64,000 nucleotides of DNA from Clostridia bacterium (GTDB lineage: Bacteria > Bacillota > Clostridia > TANB77 > UBA1234). Position 1 is the first letter of the stretch. Every line of letters begins with the position of its first letter. Shown here piece after piece: positions 3,120 to 62,406 of the stretch. A model generated the notes under the pieces. That model did no database searches and was not told where the DNA came from. It saw only the letters and a list, made by a program, of their open reading frames with translations. Position numbers and translations under genes: made by a program. The stretch covers positions 571,048 through 635,047 of the forward strand of contig JAFWYG010000005.1 of the NCBI GenBank assembly GCA_017522765.1, in the 5' to 3' direction.

Positions 3120-3722
3120 TTATTCGCCTGGCGATGTGATTACATTTACGTCTTTAACAACGAAATTAGCTTTTACTATTTGATCTGAACTTCCACCTTC
3201 TACTACGATACCATCAACTTTAAAGTTTAATTCGGCATCATTTTGAATGTCATAAATGAAGTTTATTACAGATACATATGAACCTGTGATATCGAAGCTT
3301 AATGTAGCATCCGCATCGTTTGGTGTCATTTTAAATTTAACTGCATTGTCATTAGCATAGTTTCCTACTCTAATCCATAAGTAATCTAATAAATATCTTT
3401 CAATTTTATTAGCTTCGGCTATATCTTCTTTTGATGCAGTTAATGCCAAAGTATCATATTCATTTTTCTTAGCTTCGTAATTTTTTTGCTCAAGTCTTAC
3501 ATTTTCAGCAGCTTCATCTAACTTAGTAGAATTTAAGCTGTTTAGTTGCTTCATATCATTGTCTAACTTTGTTCTGTTAGCTTTTAAATCTTCATATGAA
3601 ACAACATCCATCTTCAATTGGAACTTTTGAGTAACTAGTCCAAAATATCCTTTAGCAAAAGATGTGTAAGAACCATATGCACATATAACTATCGCTACTA
3701 ATAAGAGTAATTTCTTAATCAT
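3120..3722 (-). CDS. PilO-like pilus assembly protein
   Basis: N-terminal TM followed by a coiled-coil-rich periplasmic part. The start overlaps the stop of the PilM/N gene by 4 bp. Confidence 0.5.
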   Translation of the reverse strand: MIKKLLLLVAIVICAYGSYTSFAKGYFGLVTQKFQLKMDVVSYEDLKANRTKLDNDMKQLNSLNSTKLDEAAENVRLEQKNYEAKKNEYDTLALTASKEDIAEANKIERYLLDYLWIRVGNYANDNAVKFKMTPNDADATLSFDITGSYVSVINFIYDIQNDAELNFKVDGIVVEGGSSDQIVKANFVVKDVNVITSPGE

Positions 3723-5497
3723 GGCAAGACCCCACTAACTATAATTTTAATATTTCCATCTACACTTACTACTTCCATATCAACATCTACTAATGCTTTC
3801 TCAAGTTTAATTCTTGAAACTAAGAAACCAAGTTGAGCATATTGACCAGATTCAGCTCTTAATGAAACATCTCCAGTTTCTAAGACATTGATTGATGTCA
3901 CTTTAACACCTGCTGGCATAATAAACATCAATTTACTCATGAAGTTTGGAACGTTGTATGTCTTTCTAGATTCTTTATTAATCTTTGTAATTATTGCACT
4001 TAATTTTTCTGTGATTGCTACATATTCATCAGCACGACCTTTTAAATAAGTAGCATCTTCATCAGCTTTTGCTATTGCTGCATTTACTTTAGAAATTTCA
4101 GAATTTACTTCTTTATCTTTTGCAAGAATTCTGTTGTTTATCATCGTTCCTGCAACTATATATCCTATTAATAATGAAGCAACAAAAACTGTAGTCTTGG
4201 TAAGTATACTATCTATTCTTCCATATGATGTATCTGTGATTTCTCCATCGCCAGCCTCATCAAGCAAACTTTCGTCAAAATCAACATTTCTCTTTTTCTT
4301 CTTACTACCTATAGGAGCATTTAGCTTTTTGATAAAATCTCCAGCAGCCACCTTGGCATTTTTTATTCTACCTTTTATATCAAAAGCTTTGATTTTATCT
4401 GTTACTACTTTTGCACCTTGCAAATTCGCAGCTTTCTTTGAAGCAGCTATGAAGTTTAAGTCTTTATCACTCATACCTACACCATCAAGCGCAAGAGCGA
4501 TAGCACTGTTTACTTCAATGATTTCTTTCATATTTTCAGAATCTCTACCAGCGAAGAATGGTTTTAATATCTTACATGGTGTATCTAAAAATACTTCTCC
4601 GAAATACAAATCAATATTATTTATAACTGCACCAGCACCTGTTATATAGATAGCTTTTGCATCTTTTAAGTACGGTGTAACAATTGCATCAACTTGTTGA
4701 CGGATATCATATAACACAGGGATTACTACATCAAGAATATTTCTTGACTCATCATCCATATCATAAGAATCTTCAATATAAGCAGAAACTTTTTTCAAAG
4801 CTTCATACGCTTTTGATGCAGAATTATATTTTTCAGCAAGTTTACTGATTATTTCTTGTGTGCCAAGCGGAAGTGAAGTTACATATTGGATTTCACTTCT
4901 GTGGAAAACTGTAATTGTAGTTTTATCTTCTATATTAACTACTATGGCTTCTTCATCGATACCTTGATTTTCAAATAAGTTTTTAACACTGATTGAAAGT
5001 GGACATATCGAATCAACTTTATATTTTTCATAATTTCGTCTTATATTTGCAAGTTCACCAGTAGACGTCATAGCACATATTGCTAAGTGCTTATCGATTG
5101 ATCCACTATTTAACGCAAGCTTAACTCTCATTTCCATAACAGAACTTGATAATGCATTCTCACCCATTTTTTCTTGGTATTCAGAAAGAATAAGTTGATG
5201 CATATCTTTTTTCTTAAGATTAGCAAATACGTCTGTAATATAGAATTCTTCATTTGAAAGAGCTAAAGCTACAGAAGTAGCATTATTACTGCTTAATGTG
5301 ATTTGTCCAGGTGTTGCTGGAGCACTCATTCCTACTTCTTCAGCAATTTCATCAATTGTGGCTTGCAGATTGTCATAAAACTTGACACCATATGCATCTA
5401 ACGTAAGTATTTGCCCTGCAATCTTTTCAGTTACAGATGTTACTTTAGCGTATTTAATCATATTTCTGTCAGTGTAAATTCCTAAACAACTTGGCAT
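3719..5497 (-). CDS. PilM-PilN fusion protein (actin-like ATPase domain, then TM and PilN-like domain)
   Basis: The N-terminal half has an actin/FtsA-like PilM architecture. After residue 440 comes a TM (TTVFVASLLIGYIVAGTMI) and a PilN-like tail. Confidence 0.6.
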   Translation of the reverse strand: MPSCLGIYTDRNMIKYAKVTSVTEKIAGQILTLDAYGVKFYDNLQATIDEIAEEVGMSAPATPGQITLSSNNATSVALALSNEEFYITDVFANLKKKDMHQLILSEYQEKMGENALSSSVMEMRVKLALNSGSIDKHLAICAMTSTGELANIRRNYEKYKVDSICPLSISVKNLFENQGIDEEAIVVNIEDKTTITVFHRSEIQYVTSLPLGTQEIISKLAEKYNSASKAYEALKKVSAYIEDSYDMDDESRNILDVVIPVLYDIRQQVDAIVTPYLKDAKAIYITGAGAVINNIDLYFGEVFLDTPCKILKPFFAGRDSENMKEIIEVNSAIALALDGVGMSDKDLNFIAASKKAANLQGAKVVTDKIKAFDIKGRIKNAKVAAGDFIKKLNAPIGSKKKKRNVDFDESLLDEAGDGEITDTSYGRIDSILTKTTVFVASLLIGYIVAGTMINNRILAKDKEVNSEISKVNAAIAKADEDATYLKGRADEYVAITEKLSAIITKINKESRKTYNVPNFMSKLMFIMPAGVKVTSINVLETGDVSLRAESGQYAQLGFLVSRIKLEKALVDVDMEVVSVDGNIKIIVSGVLP

Positions 5498-54679: not shown

Positions 54680-54957
54680 AAAAATCTCTCCTTCATTCTT
54701 AGCAGCTTGTAACTTTAGATTTATTTTATCACAAGCTACACTCTCTTTAAATTTGGTTGTAAGTATAAAAAAAGAACCTCCCTTCACAAACAGCAAAAAC
54801 AACCATAATTTTGCTATGGTTAAAATTTTTGCCATTCATAAAGAAAGATTCTCAACATTCTTTATTATAATTTCTCCGGTAACATCACGCGAATGGACGA
54901 ATTGAGATGTTACGAATAGATTATAGCATGGATTTGTCAGTAAATCAATGTTTTAAA

Positions 54958-55761
54958 TTACTCATTTATTAATTGGTTGTCTGCTATTAAAACGCTCTTT
55001 CCATTTTCAATTTTAACGCAATCCTTATATCGATTATTAAACAAATCTTTATATTCTATATAAATTTCACTTATACTAGGCACCTCAACGCCGCTATATT
55101 GATACATTCCTAAATCCGTTATTACAAGATTCATTTCCTTTTCTGAGGCAACATGAATTCTATCTTCATATTTATTTAAATATACTTTTTCAATTGTTGG
55201 CTCTGCATCATTTTCATTCTTATATAATTTTGAAATAATATATGATTTGTCAACATCTATTGCAGCCATCGTTTGCCCAGAATTTAAAATTCTTATAATA
55301 TATTTGTCGGAAGTTTCTTTTTGGTTATCAGAAAAATATATGTATCCATCTAAACCGCTATTAGCAAATCTAGAATTATTTGGAAGTTCTAGTCTTACAT
55401 TTAAGTTTGGACGCTGTGATTCTCTAACATTTTCTGTGTTCGCCTCTCTGTCCATTCTAGTAATGACTATTAAAAATACTGCACTAATTAGAGTTCCTGC
55501 ATATGTACCCAAGAAAGATAACCAATCATAATTCAGTGTTAAATTTTGAGTGAATTTAAAAACAGAAAACCAATCATATCTATCAAAGTAATACAATATT
55601 ACTGGTCCAAAAAATATCCAAAATATAAACTGATGTATCGCTTTATCTCTTTCATTACACATTTTATATTCAACAATTCCTTTTCTTATGTATTCTATAA
55701 TTCTATATACCGGAAACGGAAATATAATAATTATTAACAATAATAAATGCCAAACTTTCAT
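54958..55761 (-). CDS. Membrane protein (3 N-terminal TM plus a soluble domain), hypothetical; 24 bp downstream of the OLD-family gene
   Basis: TM helices LLLLIIIIFPFPVY, IFWIFFGPVILYYF and LGTYAGTLISAVFLIVIT. Confidence 0.5.
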   Translation of the reverse strand: MKVWHLLLLIIIIFPFPVYRIIEYIRKGIVEYKMCNERDKAIHQFIFWIFFGPVILYYFDRYDWFSVFKFTQNLTLNYDWLSFLGTYAGTLISAVFLIVITRMDREANTENVRESQRPNLNVRLELPNNSRFANSGLDGYIYFSDNQKETSDKYIIRILNSGQTMAAIDVDKSYIISKLYKNENDAEPTIEKVYLNKYEDRIHVASEKEMNLVITDLGMYQYSGVEVPSISEIYIEYKDLFNNRYKDCVKIENGKSVLIADNQLINE

Positions 55762-55784
55762 TTTAAATCTCCTTTTTCGCGAAA

Positions 55785-57560
55785 TTATAACAGCTTTCCA
55801 ATAAGTATGTCAAATTTTTTTATTGTTTCTTCATCATATAGAAACTCTTTTTTTTCTATTTTTTTCAGTACAGCTAAAGAATAGTATTTTTTTTCACCTT
55901 CATAATCTTTATTATTAATCCCAATTTCATTTCTATCTCTGTCTGAAAACAATGATTCTATGGTAATACTTTGTTCTTCTTTTGGAAGTCGTTCTGCATC
56001 TACAAATATAATATCATTTTCTTGTACTAAAAGTTTTTTTACCAGAACCTTATATTCATTCCTACCATCTCTATCCTGATCCAACAGAACTTTATATTTA
56101 TACCCCCACCCCATTAATATAGAAACTAAATTGTGAATGTTCGAAACTCCTGATGATGGAATTATATTACAGGTATCCTCGATTCCTTTTTGTATAAAAT
56201 ATGCTTTTAAATAATTAAAATCCGAAATTCCTTCTGTAATAATATTATTTTTTTCTGTACTCATTGCTGAAAAACTATACCCCATTTTCATTCCTATAGC
56301 TTCAAGAATTGGAGTAATAGTCTCTTGTTTTCCTGCCATAGAATGCGGCAAAGAATGGTATGCATTACTTATATTACTATTTTCATTTTCATCTTTTATT
56401 ATGGTTCTAACTCTATCTAAATGTTCTTGATATATCATAGAAGGATGTTGGGTTGTATATATTATTTGATTGTTTTTAGATACAAAATTTTCAAATAATT
56501 CTAGTATCATTTTTTGTGCATTAACATGTAAAAACACACCTGGTTCATCTAGCAAAACAACAAAATTTTCCAAATTTGTTTTTTGAGTTTGCGCAAGCAA
56601 CTGAATATAAAAGCTCAAATACCATTTCAGTCCATTACTTCTTTCGCTTAAATTCAGATATTTCTTGTTCGTTTTCACAAGAAAATTTATATATTCATTA
56701 TTAAAATTCATTCTTAATTCAACATTATCTTGTTTATAAAATTGATTAAATCCTTCCATAAATTTTTGAATTTTTTTATTGATTTCTTCCTGAAAATTAT
56801 ATTTATCGCCATCACAAGATAAAATCCAAAATCTTTTTACCTCATCCTTTTCAACACCTATTACTTTCAAAAAACTAGTCAACACATCATCATGCTTTCC
56901 GTTATCTAACACACTGTTTTTCGTATATTTTGATTCTAATTCTACATTTTTTAAAAATATAAAACGTGGTAATAAAGAATATATTGTTTTTATACGTTTA
57001 ATAAACTCTTCAAAAGTTTTTAAAAATTCTGAATATTTACTATTTCTACTCAAATTTTTAATCATAGTATCCATCATAACTGAATATACAAAAACTTTAT
57101 TCTCTATATTTTTAATATTTTCAATCATTTTATTCATAGTAATGTTATGACTCGGTTCACTAAAAGTAATTCCTTTAGATAGGTTTATCAATTCATTTTT
57201 ATAAAATTGTATATTATTATTTTTGCTTATTATTTCAGATAATCCACCTTCAAATTCAACAGCGCCATTTCCTTTTATTGTAAATTTTGTTTCTTTTTCC
57301 GAAAGATAAATTTCCTTTTCTTTTTCATAAGGGAATGCAATCATTGAAATTACAATTTCATCGTTTATATAATTTTTATTTTTGTCTTCATCATTTAAAT
57401 TTGAAAATCCATCAAAATTCAATTTACTAATAGCGTTAAGAAAATTACTTTTACCAGATTCATTTTTACCAACAATTGTTGTAATTTCTCCCAAATCCAT
57501 TCTATTATTTTCTTCTCCAAAAGACTTAAAATTTTTTATTTTTATAGATGTTATTTTCAT
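55785..57560 (-). CDS. OLD-family nuclease (N-terminal ABC-type ATPase plus C-terminal TOPRIM), class-1 architecture
   Basis: Walker A GKNESGKSN, signature-like LSERSNGLK, Walker B VVLLDEPGVFLH, and H-loop TTQHP. TOPRIM IITEGISD and LLDQDRDG. Confidence 0.8.
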   Translation of the reverse strand: MKITSIKIKNFKSFGEENNRMDLGEITTIVGKNESGKSNFLNAISKLNFDGFSNLNDEDKNKNYINDEIVISMIAFPYEKEKEIYLSEKETKFTIKGNGAVEFEGGLSEIISKNNNIQFYKNELINLSKGITFSEPSHNITMNKMIENIKNIENKVFVYSVMMDTMIKNLSRNSKYSEFLKTFEEFIKRIKTIYSLLPRFIFLKNVELESKYTKNSVLDNGKHDDVLTSFLKVIGVEKDEVKRFWILSCDGDKYNFQEEINKKIQKFMEGFNQFYKQDNVELRMNFNNEYINFLVKTNKKYLNLSERSNGLKWYLSFYIQLLAQTQKTNLENFVVLLDEPGVFLHVNAQKMILELFENFVSKNNQIIYTTQHPSMIYQEHLDRVRTIIKDENENSNISNAYHSLPHSMAGKQETITPILEAIGMKMGYSFSAMSTEKNNIITEGISDFNYLKAYFIQKGIEDTCNIIPSSGVSNIHNLVSILMGWGYKYKVLLDQDRDGRNEYKVLVKKLLVQENDIIFVDAERLPKEEQSITIESLFSDRDRNEIGINNKDYEGEKKYYSLAVLKKIEKKEFLYDEETIKKFDILIGKLL

Positions 57561-57597
57561 TTTTCTTCTCCTTATAATATTTCGTTTTTATAAAAAA

Positions 57598-58065
57598 CTA
57601 ATGTTCTAGCCAATACCCAAAGTTGTTATACCCATCATCCTGCACCCAGTCATATACATTAGCTATTTGAGAAAAATAAACATCCTCACCTCTGCAATCT
57701 TTTCCTAAAATACCAAAGCAAATGCTTCCTTTGTTTGATGTCAAACCAGTTCTCATATCTTTTATTTTGTGAATATATACACCAATAATTTTATTCCCTC
57801 TTTTATAGCTTTCTTGAAGTTCGTACCTCACAAATTTTCTGCTAGCCGTTTCTTCTCCTATTAATACAACTGTAACACTGGTACCTTTCAATTGTTCATC
57901 AATCCAATTGTATATAGCGGGATCTCCCCCTAATTTTATTTTTTCAAAATCTGCTTTATCAATAAAACCAGCCGCTTTATTTCCTGGTATTACCCAACTA
58001 TTTCTAACTACATTTGCTCTATTAACATCGTTCGCATAGTGAAAACTAAAAAATACATTTTTCAT
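57598..58065 (-). CDS. TIR-like domain protein of the ThsB / DUF1863 type (Thoeris TIR component-like)
   Basis: VFFSFHYANDVNRANVVRNSW ... SVTVVLIGEETASRKFVRYELQESYKRGNKIIGVYIH ... VYDWVQDDGYNNFGYW. This is the pattern and the conserved C-terminal tail that I recall for Bacillus ThsB and DUF1863, not verified by search. Confidence 0.65.
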   Translation of the reverse strand: MKNVFFSFHYANDVNRANVVRNSWVIPGNKAAGFIDKADFEKIKLGGDPAIYNWIDEQLKGTSVTVVLIGEETASRKFVRYELQESYKRGNKIIGVYIHKIKDMRTGLTSNKGSICFGILGKDCRGEDVYFSQIANVYDWVQDDGYNNFGYWLEH

Positions 58066-58081
58066 ATAAATCCCTCCATTA

Positions 58082-58537
58082 TTATATAAATTTCAACAAA
58101 ATTGTAATAACTATAAACAATATGTAATATCCCACTATAGAAAATGAAGTAATCGACTCTAACATCAAGCCCACTATTTCATATTTAAAATCTGTATTTT
58201 TGGGCTTCATATTATATATCTCGATTGTTTTTAATTTTCCTTTGTTTAAATCATTTACAAACACATTGTATTTTTGAACATATACTCGTTCTAACGCCAA
58301 ATAATACGCATCCATTAAAGCTCCAATAAAAGTTATTACTATACCAATACACCAGTATGGTTCAAAGATTTCTATAGCCGATAAAACCGTGGCATAAATT
58401 GTGTATATAACCGCAACAAGAGCTTTTGTGTTAGAACTATTAGTCGCCATACGCGAAATATTGTTTTGTAAAAATCCCAAATATGTACAGACAGATTGTT
58501 CGTTTTTGTTTTTTAAGATATTACTATATTTTTTCAT
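58082..58537 (-). CDS. Small 3-TM membrane protein (151 aa), candidate membrane effector/partner of the TIR-like gene
   Basis: TM helices ALVAVIYTIYATVLSAI, WCIGIVITFIGALMDAYYL and SFSIVGYYILFIVITILLKFI. 16-bp gap to the TIR-like gene. RBS GAGGAGG. Promoter TTGATA-17-TAAGAT upstream. Confidence 0.55.
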   Translation of the reverse strand: MKKYSNILKNKNEQSVCTYLGFLQNNISRMATNSSNTKALVAVIYTIYATVLSAIEIFEPYWCIGIVITFIGALMDAYYLALERVYVQKYNVFVNDLNKGKLKTIEIYNMKPKNTDFKYEIVGLMLESITSFSIVGYYILFIVITILLKFI

Positions 58538-58663
58538 ATTACCTCCTCACACAAAAATAAGTAGAGTTCAAAATCCCTACTTATCTTAACTTTCCATATA
58601 AATTTTATCAAAAACGAACATTCTTTCCCATGGACAAAATAAAGCAAACTCTCTGTTTTCTAA

Positions 58664-59035
58664 CTATTTTGTCGCATTTTGTGTCATTTTGTAACTTTCA
58701 AGAAGCAAATCAATATTTTCATATTTCAAAGCATCAAGCGCACCTTCCAAAATTTTTAATTTTCTATCAAAGGTTATATTCGAGCTCTGTAAAAACTTCT
58801 TAAAAATTTCTGTATATTCACTTTCACTTATTACTTTAGTTTCAAATAAATTATCTAGACTAACATTACATTCTTTCGCGATTTTTATAGCATCTTTTAT
58901 ATTCATATCTCGTTTACCATTTTCCCAACTAGATACTTTAGATCTACTTATATCTAATTTTTCTGCAAAATCTTCTTGTGTATAGTTATTTTTTCTTCTT
59001 ATTTCTCTTAGTCTGTTTATAATAGATTTTTTCAT
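58664..59035 (-). CDS. XRE-family HTH transcriptional regulator
   Basis: LREIRRKNNYTQEDFAEKLDISRSKVSSWENGKR is a Cro/CI-type HTH. Confidence 0.8.
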   Translation of the reverse strand: MKKSIINRLREIRRKNNYTQEDFAEKLDISRSKVSSWENGKRDMNIKDAIKIAKECNVSLDNLFETKVISESEYTEIFKKFLQSSNITFDRKLKILEGALDALKYENIDLLLESYKMTQNATK

Positions 59036-59178
59036 TAGCGCACCTTCTTCAAATTTTTCAATACGAATATATAACTCTAAAAAGCTCTAAAAAGCGACAA
59101 ATTTATGCAAATAAAAAAGAGACGCTTCACAGAGCTTCTCTTTTTTAACCTTCCTATTTTTATACACTTCAGCAAACC

Positions 59179-59526
59179 CTAGCAGCTCAACTTATATAAA
59201 GCATACTGATTTAAAGACACACCTTCTCTTTCAGCTTCTACAGTTAATTTATAATGTAATGACTTAGGAATTCTCACAACGAATTTGCCACTAAAATCAT
59301 CATATCCTACAGGCATAGGTATTTCTAACCCCGCTTCCAATTTTGCCTCAATCCATAACTTCATTGCTTCTTTTACATTCTCATAAGCTTCTTCAAAAGT
59401 TTCTCCTGAACTTTGACAACCATCCAATTCCAAAACACGAGCATAAAAATAAGTACCACTCTCATCTTTAATTGGTTGTACAATAAAGTTGTATGGCAAC
59501 TCTAAATACTCCTTAATTTTCTTCAT
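59179..59526 (-). CDS. hicB: HicB-family antitoxin
   Basis: N-terminal HicB/UPF0150 fold (YNFIVQPIKDESGTYFYARVLELDGCQSSGETFEEA) and a C-terminal DNA-binding tail (LNQYALYKLS). Confidence 0.75.
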   Translation of the reverse strand: MKKIKEYLELPYNFIVQPIKDESGTYFYARVLELDGCQSSGETFEEAYENVKEAMKLWIEAKLEAGLEIPMPVGYDDFSGKFVVRIPKSLHYKLTVEAEREGVSLNQYALYKLSC

Positions 59527-59583
59527 AAAAGGTCACCTCCAATAATATCTCTTATCATATAAGATACTCTAAAAGCAATTTCT

Positions 59584-59812
59584 TTATTCTCCAATTCTTT
59601 TGAGCACATCTTTAACATATACTGCTTTCAAAGGATTTTCTTCTTTTATCACAATGACATCCCCTCTCTCGTTAATAAAAACTCTGTGAGATGTTCCGTT
59701 TCTTAGCTTTCATATTATATCCATAGTGTTCCAAAACTCTTGTCAATTCTTGATACCTGATTCCATTAGGTTGTCTTTTCATTTTTAATATTAGCTTATC
59801 AACATCCGGCAT
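59584..59812 (-). pseudogene. hicA: hicA toxin gene with a +1/-1 frameshift (229 nt between ATG and stop)
   Basis: Frame 1 reads MPDVDKLILKMKRQPNGIRYQELTRVLEHYGYNMKAKKRN... and frame 2 reads ...SHRVFINERGDVIVIKEENPLKAVYVKDVLKRIGE. Together they reconstruct a HicA/YcfA-like protein with the GSH..F core. Confidence 0.45.
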
Positions 59813-59973
59813 TTATAACACTCTCCATTCTTAATATAAATACCTTCTATCGATATTTATATAGTACCATATTTAGTATCATTTGTCAAAACAAAAATGG
59901 GAGACAATTAAAGCTGTAAATTAACTCACAACTTCAATTATCCCCCATTTACATTCTACTTTTTATCTAATTT

Positions 59974-60294
59974 CTACTTCTTCCTCTTCTTCGCCTGCAT
60001 TTTCTTAAACTTAATCAAATCTAAAATCTCCGCTTTATCTTCTTTAGACAATTCTTCAAAACTTCTAGCAAAGACTAATGTTTTCTCTTTTTTCTTCTTA
60101 CCCTCCATAAGCTCTTCCATTGTGCAGTTATATATTTTCGCAAATTTAGCTAGTTCCTCTGCAGTAACTTTTCTACCATCGTTTTCAATGTTAGTTATAA
60201 TCACTCTAGAAACTTTAATCATTTTCGCAACGTCTTCTTGTGTTAAACCTTCAGCTTCTCTTATTTCTCTTAATCTTGTTCCCAAACTTTTCAT
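59974..60294 (-). CDS. XRE-family HTH transcriptional regulator
   Basis: LREIREAEGLTQEDVAKMIKVSRVIITNIENDGRKV. RBS GGGGGA before the internal ATG (MKSLG). 4 bp after the NUDIX stop. Confidence 0.75.
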   Translation of the reverse strand: MKSLGTRLREIREAEGLTQEDVAKMIKVSRVIITNIENDGRKVTAEELAKFAKIYNCTMEELMEGKKKKEKTLVFARSFEELSKEDKAEILDLIKFKKMQAKKRKK

Positions 60295-60318
60295 ATGAAT
60301 CCCCCATTTAAACAATTC

Positions 60319-60825
60319 TTACATATTTTCTAAGAACTTGCATACCTTCACAAAGCACGCAATTTGATTCGCATTTAATTCGTTTGTTTCCACCATATGA
60401 TTCAATTCATCCATCGAAAACCATCTAACCTCAGATAGTTCCTCCTCCTGGATTTGCATATCCGCAATGTCCACATCTTTATTCACAAAATACATTTTGT
60501 AGCAATCTCTGCCATCACAACCAGAATCGTATTCGATTAATGTCTCATTAGAAAAATCTAATCCCAACTCTTCTCTTACCTCTGTAATAATTCCCTCAAT
60601 TGGAGTTTCGCCAGCTTTAGGATGTCCACCAGTTACACCCCAGTCGCCACCTTTGCTCTCTACTCTCTTTTGCATAAGGAATTCCCCTTTTGAGTTTCTT
60701 ATCACAATCATAACAACCATAGGATAATACCCTTCAGGAATAGGTTCACCTTTTCTGTAAGTCTTGTCCGTTTTATTACTATTAACATCATATAAATCTC
60801 TTAATTCAGCCATACAATCCACCAT
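60319..60825 (-). CDS. NUDIX hydrolase
   Basis: GGHPKAGETPIEGIITEVREELGL Nudix box. Confidence 0.85.
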   Translation of the reverse strand: MVDCMAELRDLYDVNSNKTDKTYRKGEPIPEGYYPMVVMIVIRNSKGEFLMQKRVESKGGDWGVTGGHPKAGETPIEGIITEVREELGLDFSNETLIEYDSGCDGRDCYKMYFVNKDVDIADMQIQEEELSEVRWFSMDELNHMVETNELNANQIACFVKVCKFLENM

Positions 60826-61764: not shown

Positions 61765-62406
61765 TTATATACCATTCGCTCCATACTCCCCCTCAAACTC
61801 CACCACTATCTCACTCAACCTCTCATCCAAATACTCCATCGCTTTTGCTCTCATCTCTTCCGGTATTCCATAGTAAGCTTCGGCGATGCCGCCTGTGATT
61901 GCGCCGATTGTGTCGCTGTCGCCGCCTATAGAAATTGCATTTCGGATGGCATCTTCGAAACTTGTTGATTCTAGGAATGCGGTGATTGCTTGAGGCACGG
62001 TGCCTTGCCAACTTTCGTTGAACGCGTATCTTGGTCTTATCTCATCCAAAGTGAAGTTCATCGGATAATAGTTTGCATCTATGTAATCGTGAATTTCAGG
62101 AATCGTATGGCCTGTCCTTGCAAGATAGATTGCAACGGCTGTTGCTTCAGCGCCTTTGATACCTTAACAACCACCATAACCACAATGCGGATACAGCCTA
62201 CCGATTTCCTTCATATAGAAAATCGTTTTCTCCGACAAATCCTCAAAACCTTCTTGAGACTCGATTATAGCCTTCGCGATAGCAAGCGACATGATAGAAT
62301 CATCTGTACATTCACAATCGCTATGAAAAATCTCAAACTCTTTATTCTTATTATTTTCAAATTCAAATCTCGAACCGGCGATATCGCCGATGATTGCACC
62401 TAGCAT
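61765..62406 (-). pseudogene. ADP-ribosylglycohydrolase (ARH/DraG family) interrupted by a single in-frame TAA (plus coordinates 62164-62166)
   Basis: N-terminus MLGAIIGDIAGSRFEF (ARH signature). The two ORFs 62164..62406 and 61765..62061 are in the same frame. The sequence continues ...GIKGAEATAVAIYLARTGH...GGDSDTIGAITGGIAEAYYG (the second ARH metal-binding region). Confidence 0.65.

Follow-up and report, generated by a model that had tools for sequence, protein, structure and literature searches.

The locus examined here raises the question of what a 151-aa membrane protein, whose existing annotation reads hypothetical protein only, could do beside a gene for a TIR-domain protein in the genome of an uncultured Clostridia bacterium. 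The window, which is the whole 64,000-nucleotide stretch of contig JAFWYG010000005.1 that was analysed, had been described in an earlier note, made from its letters alone, as holding a small membrane protein that is a candidate effector coupled to the TIR gene. That proposal gains support from two sides, the homology of the protein to ThsF and the conservation of its pairing with TIR genes. With a probability of roughly 0.8, the 151-aa protein is a divergent ThsF and the pair is a type V Thoeris system, that is, a system of a known kind. Two hitherto unannotated genes of an uncultured member of the Clostridia would thereby receive a function.

Anatomy and control region of the gene pair

Both genes are encoded on the reverse strand. 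The thsF-like gene (58082..58537) is an open reading frame with an ATG start, and its product is a three-helix membrane protein of the PDC-M50A / phrog_19896 family. Its TAA stop codon (58082-58084) is followed, after a spacer of 16 bp (58066..58081), by the ATG (58063-58065) of the thsB gene (57598..58065), which encodes a TIR-domain protein of 155 aa that is predicted to sense phage and to synthesise the signal. These coordinates were read from the sequence and agree with the protein length and the gene spacing given in the earlier note. The spacer holds a ribosome-binding site, GGAGGG (58072-58077), which lies 6 nt ahead of the thsB start codon. Close homologues, each about 150 aa long, numbered 29 in a word-indexed search; their identity to the 151-aa protein is 44-65%, and the lowest E-value is 1e-57. 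One entry in NCBI, derived from the metagenome-assembled genome of a Clostridia bacterium, has exactly the same sequence as the 151-aa protein. The gene is therefore genuine and not a chance open reading frame.

The 126 bp upstream of thsF (58538..58663, reverse strand) are the probable control region of a thsF-thsB operon, a function suggested by the elements that they contain. These include AGGAGG at 58542-58547 and a promoter-like site, TTGATA-17-TAAGAT (58611..58583, reverse strand), which is the sole such site upstream of thsF. It had been claimed that the two genes have a common promoter, and one promoter for both is plausible in view of the 16-bp spacer, of the lack of any terminator-like site in 54800-59200, and of the spacing of at most 16 bp in 22 of 24 related metagenome loci. 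On the other hand, a promoter scan gave 22 sites against 29.8 expected in shuffled sequence, which is not above chance. The 126-bp region also contains a 13-bp hairpin (58554-58587, reverse strand; -13 kcal/mol, z -2.2), and a U-rich stretch comes directly after it. The hairpin is located between an XRE-family gene (58664-59035) and the thsF ribosome-binding site and overlaps the -10 element of the promoter-like site; it could serve to terminate transcription of the XRE gene or to control the Thoeris operon.

Topology and predicted structure

Hydropathy analysis of the 151-aa protein (Kyte-Doolittle, 19-aa windows) showed that hydrophobicity peaks three times, with centres at 46-50, 66-73 and 133-142. 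Lysine and arginine are distributed unevenly, with five in residues 1-37, eight in residues 83-128 and none in the 59-61 loop, and this charge distribution predicts a topology with the N-terminus inside and the C-terminus outside. Both results concur with the three transmembrane (TM) helices and the cytoplasmic N-terminus that had been described earlier. An AF2 model based on 24 homologues (pLDDT 87) contains helices at 14-54 (the N-terminal region and TM1) and 64-98 (TM2 and a cytoplasmic extension), then short helices, and finally a helix at 132-150 (TM3). The accompanying statement that the protein has no soluble domain was too strong, as 83 of the 151 residues are predicted to be cytoplasmic and hold most of the invariant positions. 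A Foldseek search of the model against BFVD found nothing at E <= 0.001, and DUF2270 and SLATT proteins were among the non-significant matches.

Family assignment

Searches of Pfam and NCBIfam with the 151-aa protein gave no significant family and only sub-threshold matches to Kyano_Gp96, SLATT_1 and DUF6219. By contrast with these libraries, two dedicated model collections recognised it: the PADLOC model PDC-M50A matched residues 16-151 (E 7.8e-14), and the phage family phrog_19896 matched with an E-value of 9.2e-11. The adjacent gene product is matched by the second model of the same candidate system, PDC-M50B (E 8.8e-52), and hence both models fall on adjacent genes. Remote homology to the CBASS 2TM/Cap15 and pycTM families, which had been suggested as a check, was looked for with the PADLOC models and not found; apart from PDC-M50A, the sole model to match within an E-value limit of 1 was PDC-M53A, and that weakly. 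Sub-threshold Pfam matches to 8xMP were also seen, for which no literature on 8xMP was found, and the lead was dropped.

The PDC entries of PADLOC denote phage defence candidates, as yet untested, whose prediction came from guilt-by-embedding (Payne et al., bioRxiv 10.1101/2024.01.29.577857). The pair was flagged as candidate PDC-M50 in PADLOC-DB v2.0.0 (2023), and type V Thoeris was validated in late 2025. PDC-M50 thus names the same gene pair, but as an untested candidate it is silent on mechanism, and the term 'PDC-M50' was absent from the paper texts searched. Judged by the sequence matches, PDC-M50 and type V Thoeris are one system.

An exhaustive profile search identified 2,932 cluster representatives at E <= 1e-3 and 632 at E <= 1e-10, nearly all of them 135-160 aa long; the family size of about 2,900 clusters refers to clustering at 50% identity. 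The longer family members have low-complexity tails with no fused domains, none of the top matches of a second profile search has a Pfam domain, and a sequence search of the PDB with the family profile gave nothing relevant. Pfam and NCBIfam scans therefore miss ThsF although the family comprises about 2,900 clusters at 50% identity, implying that type V Thoeris stays unannotated wherever dedicated models are not used.

Relationship to validated ThsF

Type V Thoeris consists of ThsB and ThsF, the latter a protein with three membrane-spanning helices annotated as DUF2270 / PF10028 (Yirmiya et al., bioRxiv 10.64898/2025.12.03.692087, December 2025). Two such systems, from B. thuringiensis DAR 81934 and Bacillus sp. 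1NLA3E, protected B. subtilis (bioRxiv 10.64898/2025.12.03.692087). The same study reported that the DAR 81934 ThsB synthesises 3'cADPR upon phage infection, that 3'cADPR in the medium inhibits the growth of cells carrying this system with no need for phage, that the 3'cADPR sponge Tad1 substantially lowers defence, and that ThsF is predicted by AF3 to form a homo-heptameric ring with positive pockets between protomers, whereas added 3'cADPR was not toxic in the 1NLA3E system (bioRxiv 10.64898/2025.12.03.692087).

The window protein could be connected to these systems through a chain of homologues. A genome scan with the 1NLA3E ThsB domain located 71%-identical TIR genes in Exiguobacterium and Thalassobacillus; in both, a gene for a 135-aa three-helix protein comes next, at a distance of 2 bp. 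The homologues of this protein include P0314 (141 aa) from the B. cereus group, whose gene starts 14 bp after the gene for a 252-aa TIR protein, and this TIR protein is identical at 251 of 251 positions to the DAR 81934 ThsB as its sequence stands among the entries listed in Table S1. Because of this neighbour, P0314 is either the validated ThsF or indistinguishable from it by context. The models that match the window protein match P0314 with much lower E-values (PDC-M50A, 1.8e-48 vs 7.8e-14; phrog_19896, 9.4e-37 vs 9.2e-11). In BLASTP, the window protein aligned with P0314 over the full length (24% identity, E 3e-6) and with the 135-aa Exiguobacterium protein at E 2e-9, and an hhalign comparison of the window clade with the validated clade gave a probability of 98.6% over 121 columns (E 6.1e-16). 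Moreover, an AF2 model of P0314 (pLDDT 89.8) has a helix layout matching that of the window model, and its hydropathy profile likewise displays three peaks.

The DUF2270 label contributed little to this assignment. No match of the window protein to DUF2270 (PF10028) was found by hmmscan of Pfam at E up to 1; the validated-type P0314 was also unmatched, and its relatives P0313 and P0300 reached E-values of 0.16 and 0.53. Among 108 family members, only 14 had sub-threshold matches (best E 9e-4). Since both P0314 and the window protein fall below the cut-off, hmmscan does not reproduce the DUF2270 label given in the type V study, and this label is no useful test of membership in ThsF.

In summary of the comparison with type V systems, the window protein and ThsF have in common a length of about 135-150 aa, three helices with the same layout, the PADLOC and PHROG models, the motif Q..I.RM..NS...K before TM1 and the motif D...L..E after TM2, and in both cases the gene shares an operon with the TIR gene of a ThsB, located within a defence island. 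On the other hand, the window protein is only 24% identical to validated ThsF and belongs to a divergent clade; the gene order is thsF to thsB in the window and thsB to thsF in the Bacillus systems; the partner in the window is a short, 155-aa ThsB of a type I-like clade, and that of DAR 81934 has 251 aa; and the host is an uncultured Clostridia bacterium rather than a Bacillus. The two ThsB proteins match different PADLOC ThsB models and thus represent separate TIR clades.

The TIR partner

The product of 57598-58065 (reverse strand) matches the Pfam model ThsB_TIR (E 4.7e-24) and the PADLOC model ThsB1 (E 9.1e-60). Its identity to ThsB of the type I system of B. cereus MSX-D12 is 49%. Glu82, within FVRYEL, aligns with the Glu of WVRYEI, the RYE motif of the MSX-D12 protein, and this Glu is the catalytic E85 of type I ThsB. 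Among the entries listed in Table S1 of the survey, it is 59% identical to a TIR labelled 'DUF2270 - Type V'; this label of the closest TIRs holds for the listed entries, in which alphabetically early categories may be favoured, and in view of this possible bias the assignment relies on the direct homology chain instead. Plasmid relatives of the window TIR have SIR2, HIT or SLOG effectors as partners, a variety expected of an interchangeable signal producer. With the DAR 81934 ThsB as query, the plasmid matches H1 and H2 had no adjoining ThsF open reading frame, and their neighbours were other TIR, Macro or SIR2 genes.

Conservation of the pairing with TIR genes

Metagenome loci were scanned with alignment A1, which represents the closer effector clade. 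At 22 of the 24 loci found in this way, with the effector clade alone, a same-strand TIR gene was located at most 16 bp downstream or overlapped the effector gene, and at the remaining two the contig ended within about 170 bp of the effector gene. Other close homologues form the same pair in differing surroundings, such as type I restriction-modification genes, NERD, Schlafen-type helicases and integrases. The most distant match of the word search (32% identity) overlaps a TIR gene lying upstream, and one or two ThsB_TIR genes flank each of three distant members, whose contigs are 2-4 Mb long. The earlier note had regarded ubiquitous homologues in non-defence contexts as the observation that would count against an effector role. 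What was found instead is a TIR neighbour in every assessable sampled locus, and this adjacency across metagenome loci, megabase-scale contigs and an archaeal plasmid argues against such a distribution.

The archaeal example is a ThsF-family gene (PDC-M50A, E 1.2e-40) on plasmid pHTIA of Halorhabdus tiamatea (L015, 2074-3157), which overlaps its TIR gene by 8 bp. This pair is flanked by ISH3 transposases, suggesting horizontal spread of type V Thoeris into haloarchaea.

Other loci illustrate variation in the arrangement. On a Dietzia plasmid (L019, 2350-2835), the ThsF-family gene lies on the opposite strand and converges on and overlaps a TIR-HIT pair, and on a Nostoc plasmid (L017, 837-1313) it diverges from an opposite-strand TIR gene at a distance of 181 bp; the operon layout is thus not uniform across the ThsF family. 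An extra TIR-like gene was present beside the ThsF-ThsB pair in some relatives (L030-L038, about 3440-4130; L054 and L055, 2578-4052), one form of which has 228 aa, starts MGHKIFVSYKYAD and lies 13 bp downstream. Other relatives with a second TIR have ThsB genes on both sides of ThsF; the window has one TIR gene.

Two further loci concern decay and fusion. In L009 (5466-5951), a ThsF homologue 62% identical to the window protein is intact, and the adjoining TIR gene is broken into short open reading frames, of which a 77-aa fragment still matches TIR (E 1.9e-14); this is a case of system decay with the effector gene retained. In Citricoccus sp. (L022, 1433-2329), a 298-aa protein combines an N-terminal HIT domain (E 2.6e-23) with a C-terminal ThsF-like membrane domain (PDC-M50A, E 8e-20), and its gene is flanked by two TIR genes. 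This fusion unites the effector module of type XI Thoeris with that of type V.

Conserved residues and proposed mechanism

Within a diverse set of 108 family members, a position was counted as conserved where at least 80% of the sequences agree. This holds for Q24, I27, R29, M30, N33, S34 and K38 before TM1; D76, Y79, L80 and E83 where TM2 ends; F93 in the part of the helix that extends into the cytoplasm after TM2; and S131, S133, position 137 and Y138 at the start of TM3, position 137 being mostly Phe in the family and Tyr in the window protein. Most of them are likewise invariant in the validated ThsF clade. In the predicted topology, three conserved clusters sit at the cytoplasmic face of the membrane. 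We infer that these residues form the ligand pocket that the type V study places between protomers. Sensing most likely takes place at the conserved juxtamembrane region, with no separate domain. R29 and K38, both invariant and located at the cytoplasmic face, would suit a pocket that binds phosphate and lend indirect support to a ring with positively charged pockets between its protomers.

On this basis, a mechanism can be proposed for the pair. Infection would be sensed by ThsB, whose TIR active site (Glu82) would turn NAD+ into an isomer of cyclic ADP-ribose, with 3'cADPR as the most likely product. The signal would then bind ThsF, a three-helix inner-membrane protein which, by homology to the Bacillus protein, is predicted to form a homo-oligomeric ring. 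Binding would take place at positively charged pockets at the cytoplasmic membrane face, made up of Q24, R29, N33, S34 and K38 (before TM1), D76, Y79 and E83 (after TM2), and S131 and Y138 (before TM3). Once bound, ThsF would open or disrupt the membrane, and the infection would be aborted. The signal identity, the pocket residues and the oligomeric state of the window ThsF are all proposed by homology, and the defence function, the 3'cADPR signal and the ligand-induced toxicity are taken over from a homologue that is 24% identical. The conserved interface residues offer concrete targets for mutagenesis with which to locate where cADPR would bind to a receptor of this kind, in which a distinct sensor domain is lacking.

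Several known effectors resemble the proposed ThsF in some respects. ThsC (formerly ThsA; type II Thoeris, two TM helices and a Macro domain), Cap15 and the Pycsar TM effectors are likewise membrane-disrupting proteins that respond to a nucleotide-derived trigger in abortive infection. They carry a separate soluble ligand-binding domain (Macro, beta-barrel or cNMP-binding). Unlike in these proteins, sensing in the window protein must reside in the juxtamembrane helices. PADLOC gave no match of the window protein to any of these families up to an E-value of 1, and no cyclase gene was found among the neighbouring genes scanned. A closer parallel is provided by the SLATT effectors of CBASS and of type VII Thoeris (ThsH), which are also small membrane effectors without a separate globular sensor; similar to ThsF, ThsH is a predicted oligomer in which TIR-made cyclic ADPR is bound in inter-protomer pockets. 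However, the signal reported for ThsH is canonical cADPR and not 3'cADPR, and the window protein has no significant SLATT match.

Alternative explanations

The identity of the signal is the weakest step of the mechanism, because 3'cADPR is non-toxic in the 1NLA3E system and the window clade is divergent, and the signal may differ between ThsF clades. It is conceivable, though unlikely, that the ThsF clade of gut Clostridia responds to a signal other than 3'cADPR or needs a second infection-derived cue. This reading is prompted by the 24% identity to validated ThsF, the thsF-first gene order and the short type I-like ThsB; a second cue is also suspected for the Bacillus sp. 1NLA3E system (bioRxiv 10.64898/2025.12.03.692087). 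Were it true, this family of about 150-aa proteins would represent a minimal and tunable membrane receptor for different TIR-made nucleotides, with the entire ligand site built from juxtamembrane helices.

The earlier note had reasoned that a bare three-helix effector needs another kind of trigger, for example direct contact with the TIR protein, and the corresponding explanation dispenses with the ligand site and with any diffusible signal. Such a protein would show no sensor domain recognisable in Pfam or NCBIfam, as is the case here, and its gene could be tightly coupled to that of the TIR, as are the window genes (16 bp apart) and those of relatives in which they overlap. The lack of toxicity of added 3'cADPR in the 1NLA3E type V system would also be compatible with it (bioRxiv 10.64898/2025.12.03.692087). 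The homologous DAR 81934 system nevertheless behaves otherwise, as exogenous 3'cADPR is toxic there without phage and Tad1 substantially lowers defence (bioRxiv 10.64898/2025.12.03.692087). In addition, ThsB has retained its catalytic Glu, ThsF has at its cytoplasmic face the invariant pair R29 and K38, which suits a phosphate-binding pocket, and the ThsF family pairs with several unrelated TIR clades, implying a small-molecule interface rather than a co-evolved protein interface. Direct activation by the TIR protein is thus quite improbable, and a ThsF that binds a TIR-made signal remains the preferred reading.

The roles of the two proteins might also be reversed, with the TIR acting as a toxic, NAD+-depleting effector and the membrane protein as its sensor, anchor or regulator, so that no true Thoeris signalling would occur. 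The type V survey itself warns of an effector role of TIR proteins in unverified configurations (bioRxiv 10.64898/2025.12.03.692087), and in CBASS, Pycsar and pAgo systems there are bacterial TIRs that act as NADases. The configuration has, however, been verified for two systems homologous to the one in the window, and for DAR 81934 the verification extends to signal-dependent toxicity in system-carrying cells. The window ThsB is 49% identical to a type I ThsB that produces 3'cADPR, and its close TIR relatives pair with interchangeable SIR2 and HIT effectors, as would be expected for a signal producer. A reversal of roles is therefore very doubtful, and ThsB is better seen as the source of the signal to which ThsF responds.

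Another explanation takes the 151-aa protein as a SLATT-domain effector, in which case the pair would be a type VII Thoeris system with canonical cADPR and there would be no ThsF. SLATT effectors are likewise small helical-hairpin membrane proteins paired with TIRs. The window protein has a sub-threshold SLATT_1 match at residues 31-99 (E 0.14), one of the 108 family members matches SLATT_6 (E 0.0077), and SLATT proteins occur among the non-significant BFVD matches. These matches are nevertheless far under the gathering scores (SLATT_1, 12.6 bits vs a cut-off of 26.3), the commonest sub-threshold Pfam match in the family is DUF2270, and the ThsF-containing models reach E-values of 1e-11 to 1e-14, with an hhalign E-value of 6e-16 against the validated ThsF clade. 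Membership in the SLATT group is thus highly improbable. Finally, it is scarcely credible that a housekeeping or otherwise unrelated small membrane protein lies next to the TIR gene by chance, as its hypothetical-protein annotation and the lack of a Pfam family might suggest, given that a TIR gene adjoins in every assessable locus across backgrounds, phyla and Archaea and that one relative is fused to HIT between two TIR genes.

The surrounding island

The putative type V pair is accompanied by further genes on the reverse strand. Downstream (54958-57560), a 591-aa OLD-family ATPase-TOPRIM protein is encoded from 37 bp after thsB (AAA_15 and OLD-like_TOPRIM; PADLOC Old, E 8e-27), and is followed by a gene for a 267-aa protein. 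The latter has hydrophobic N-terminal segments, and searches of Pfam, NCBIfam, PADLOC and PHROGs with it all came back empty; its gene is preceded closely by a sigma-70-like site (55813..55784) that is perfect at 12/12 positions. These two genes may constitute a separate two-gene defence system with an uncharacterised partner.

Upstream, the island (58664-60825) contains two XRE-type HTH regulators (58664-59035 and 59974-60315), a HicB antitoxin (59179-59526) and a NUDIX hydrolase (60319-60825), all on the reverse strand, as well as a 46-aa open reading frame (59672-59812, reverse strand) which has no Pfam match and is found at the place where a HicA toxin might be expected. Further along the same strand (61765-62406), two short open reading frames, 80 and 98 aa long, align with opposite ends of the Pfam ADP-ribosylglycohydrolase model and with nothing in between (positions 3-94 and 233-281 of 287), and the region looks like an internally deleted or decayed ADP-ribosylglycohydrolase gene. 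This remnant shares the island with a system that would signal by ADP-ribose derivatives.
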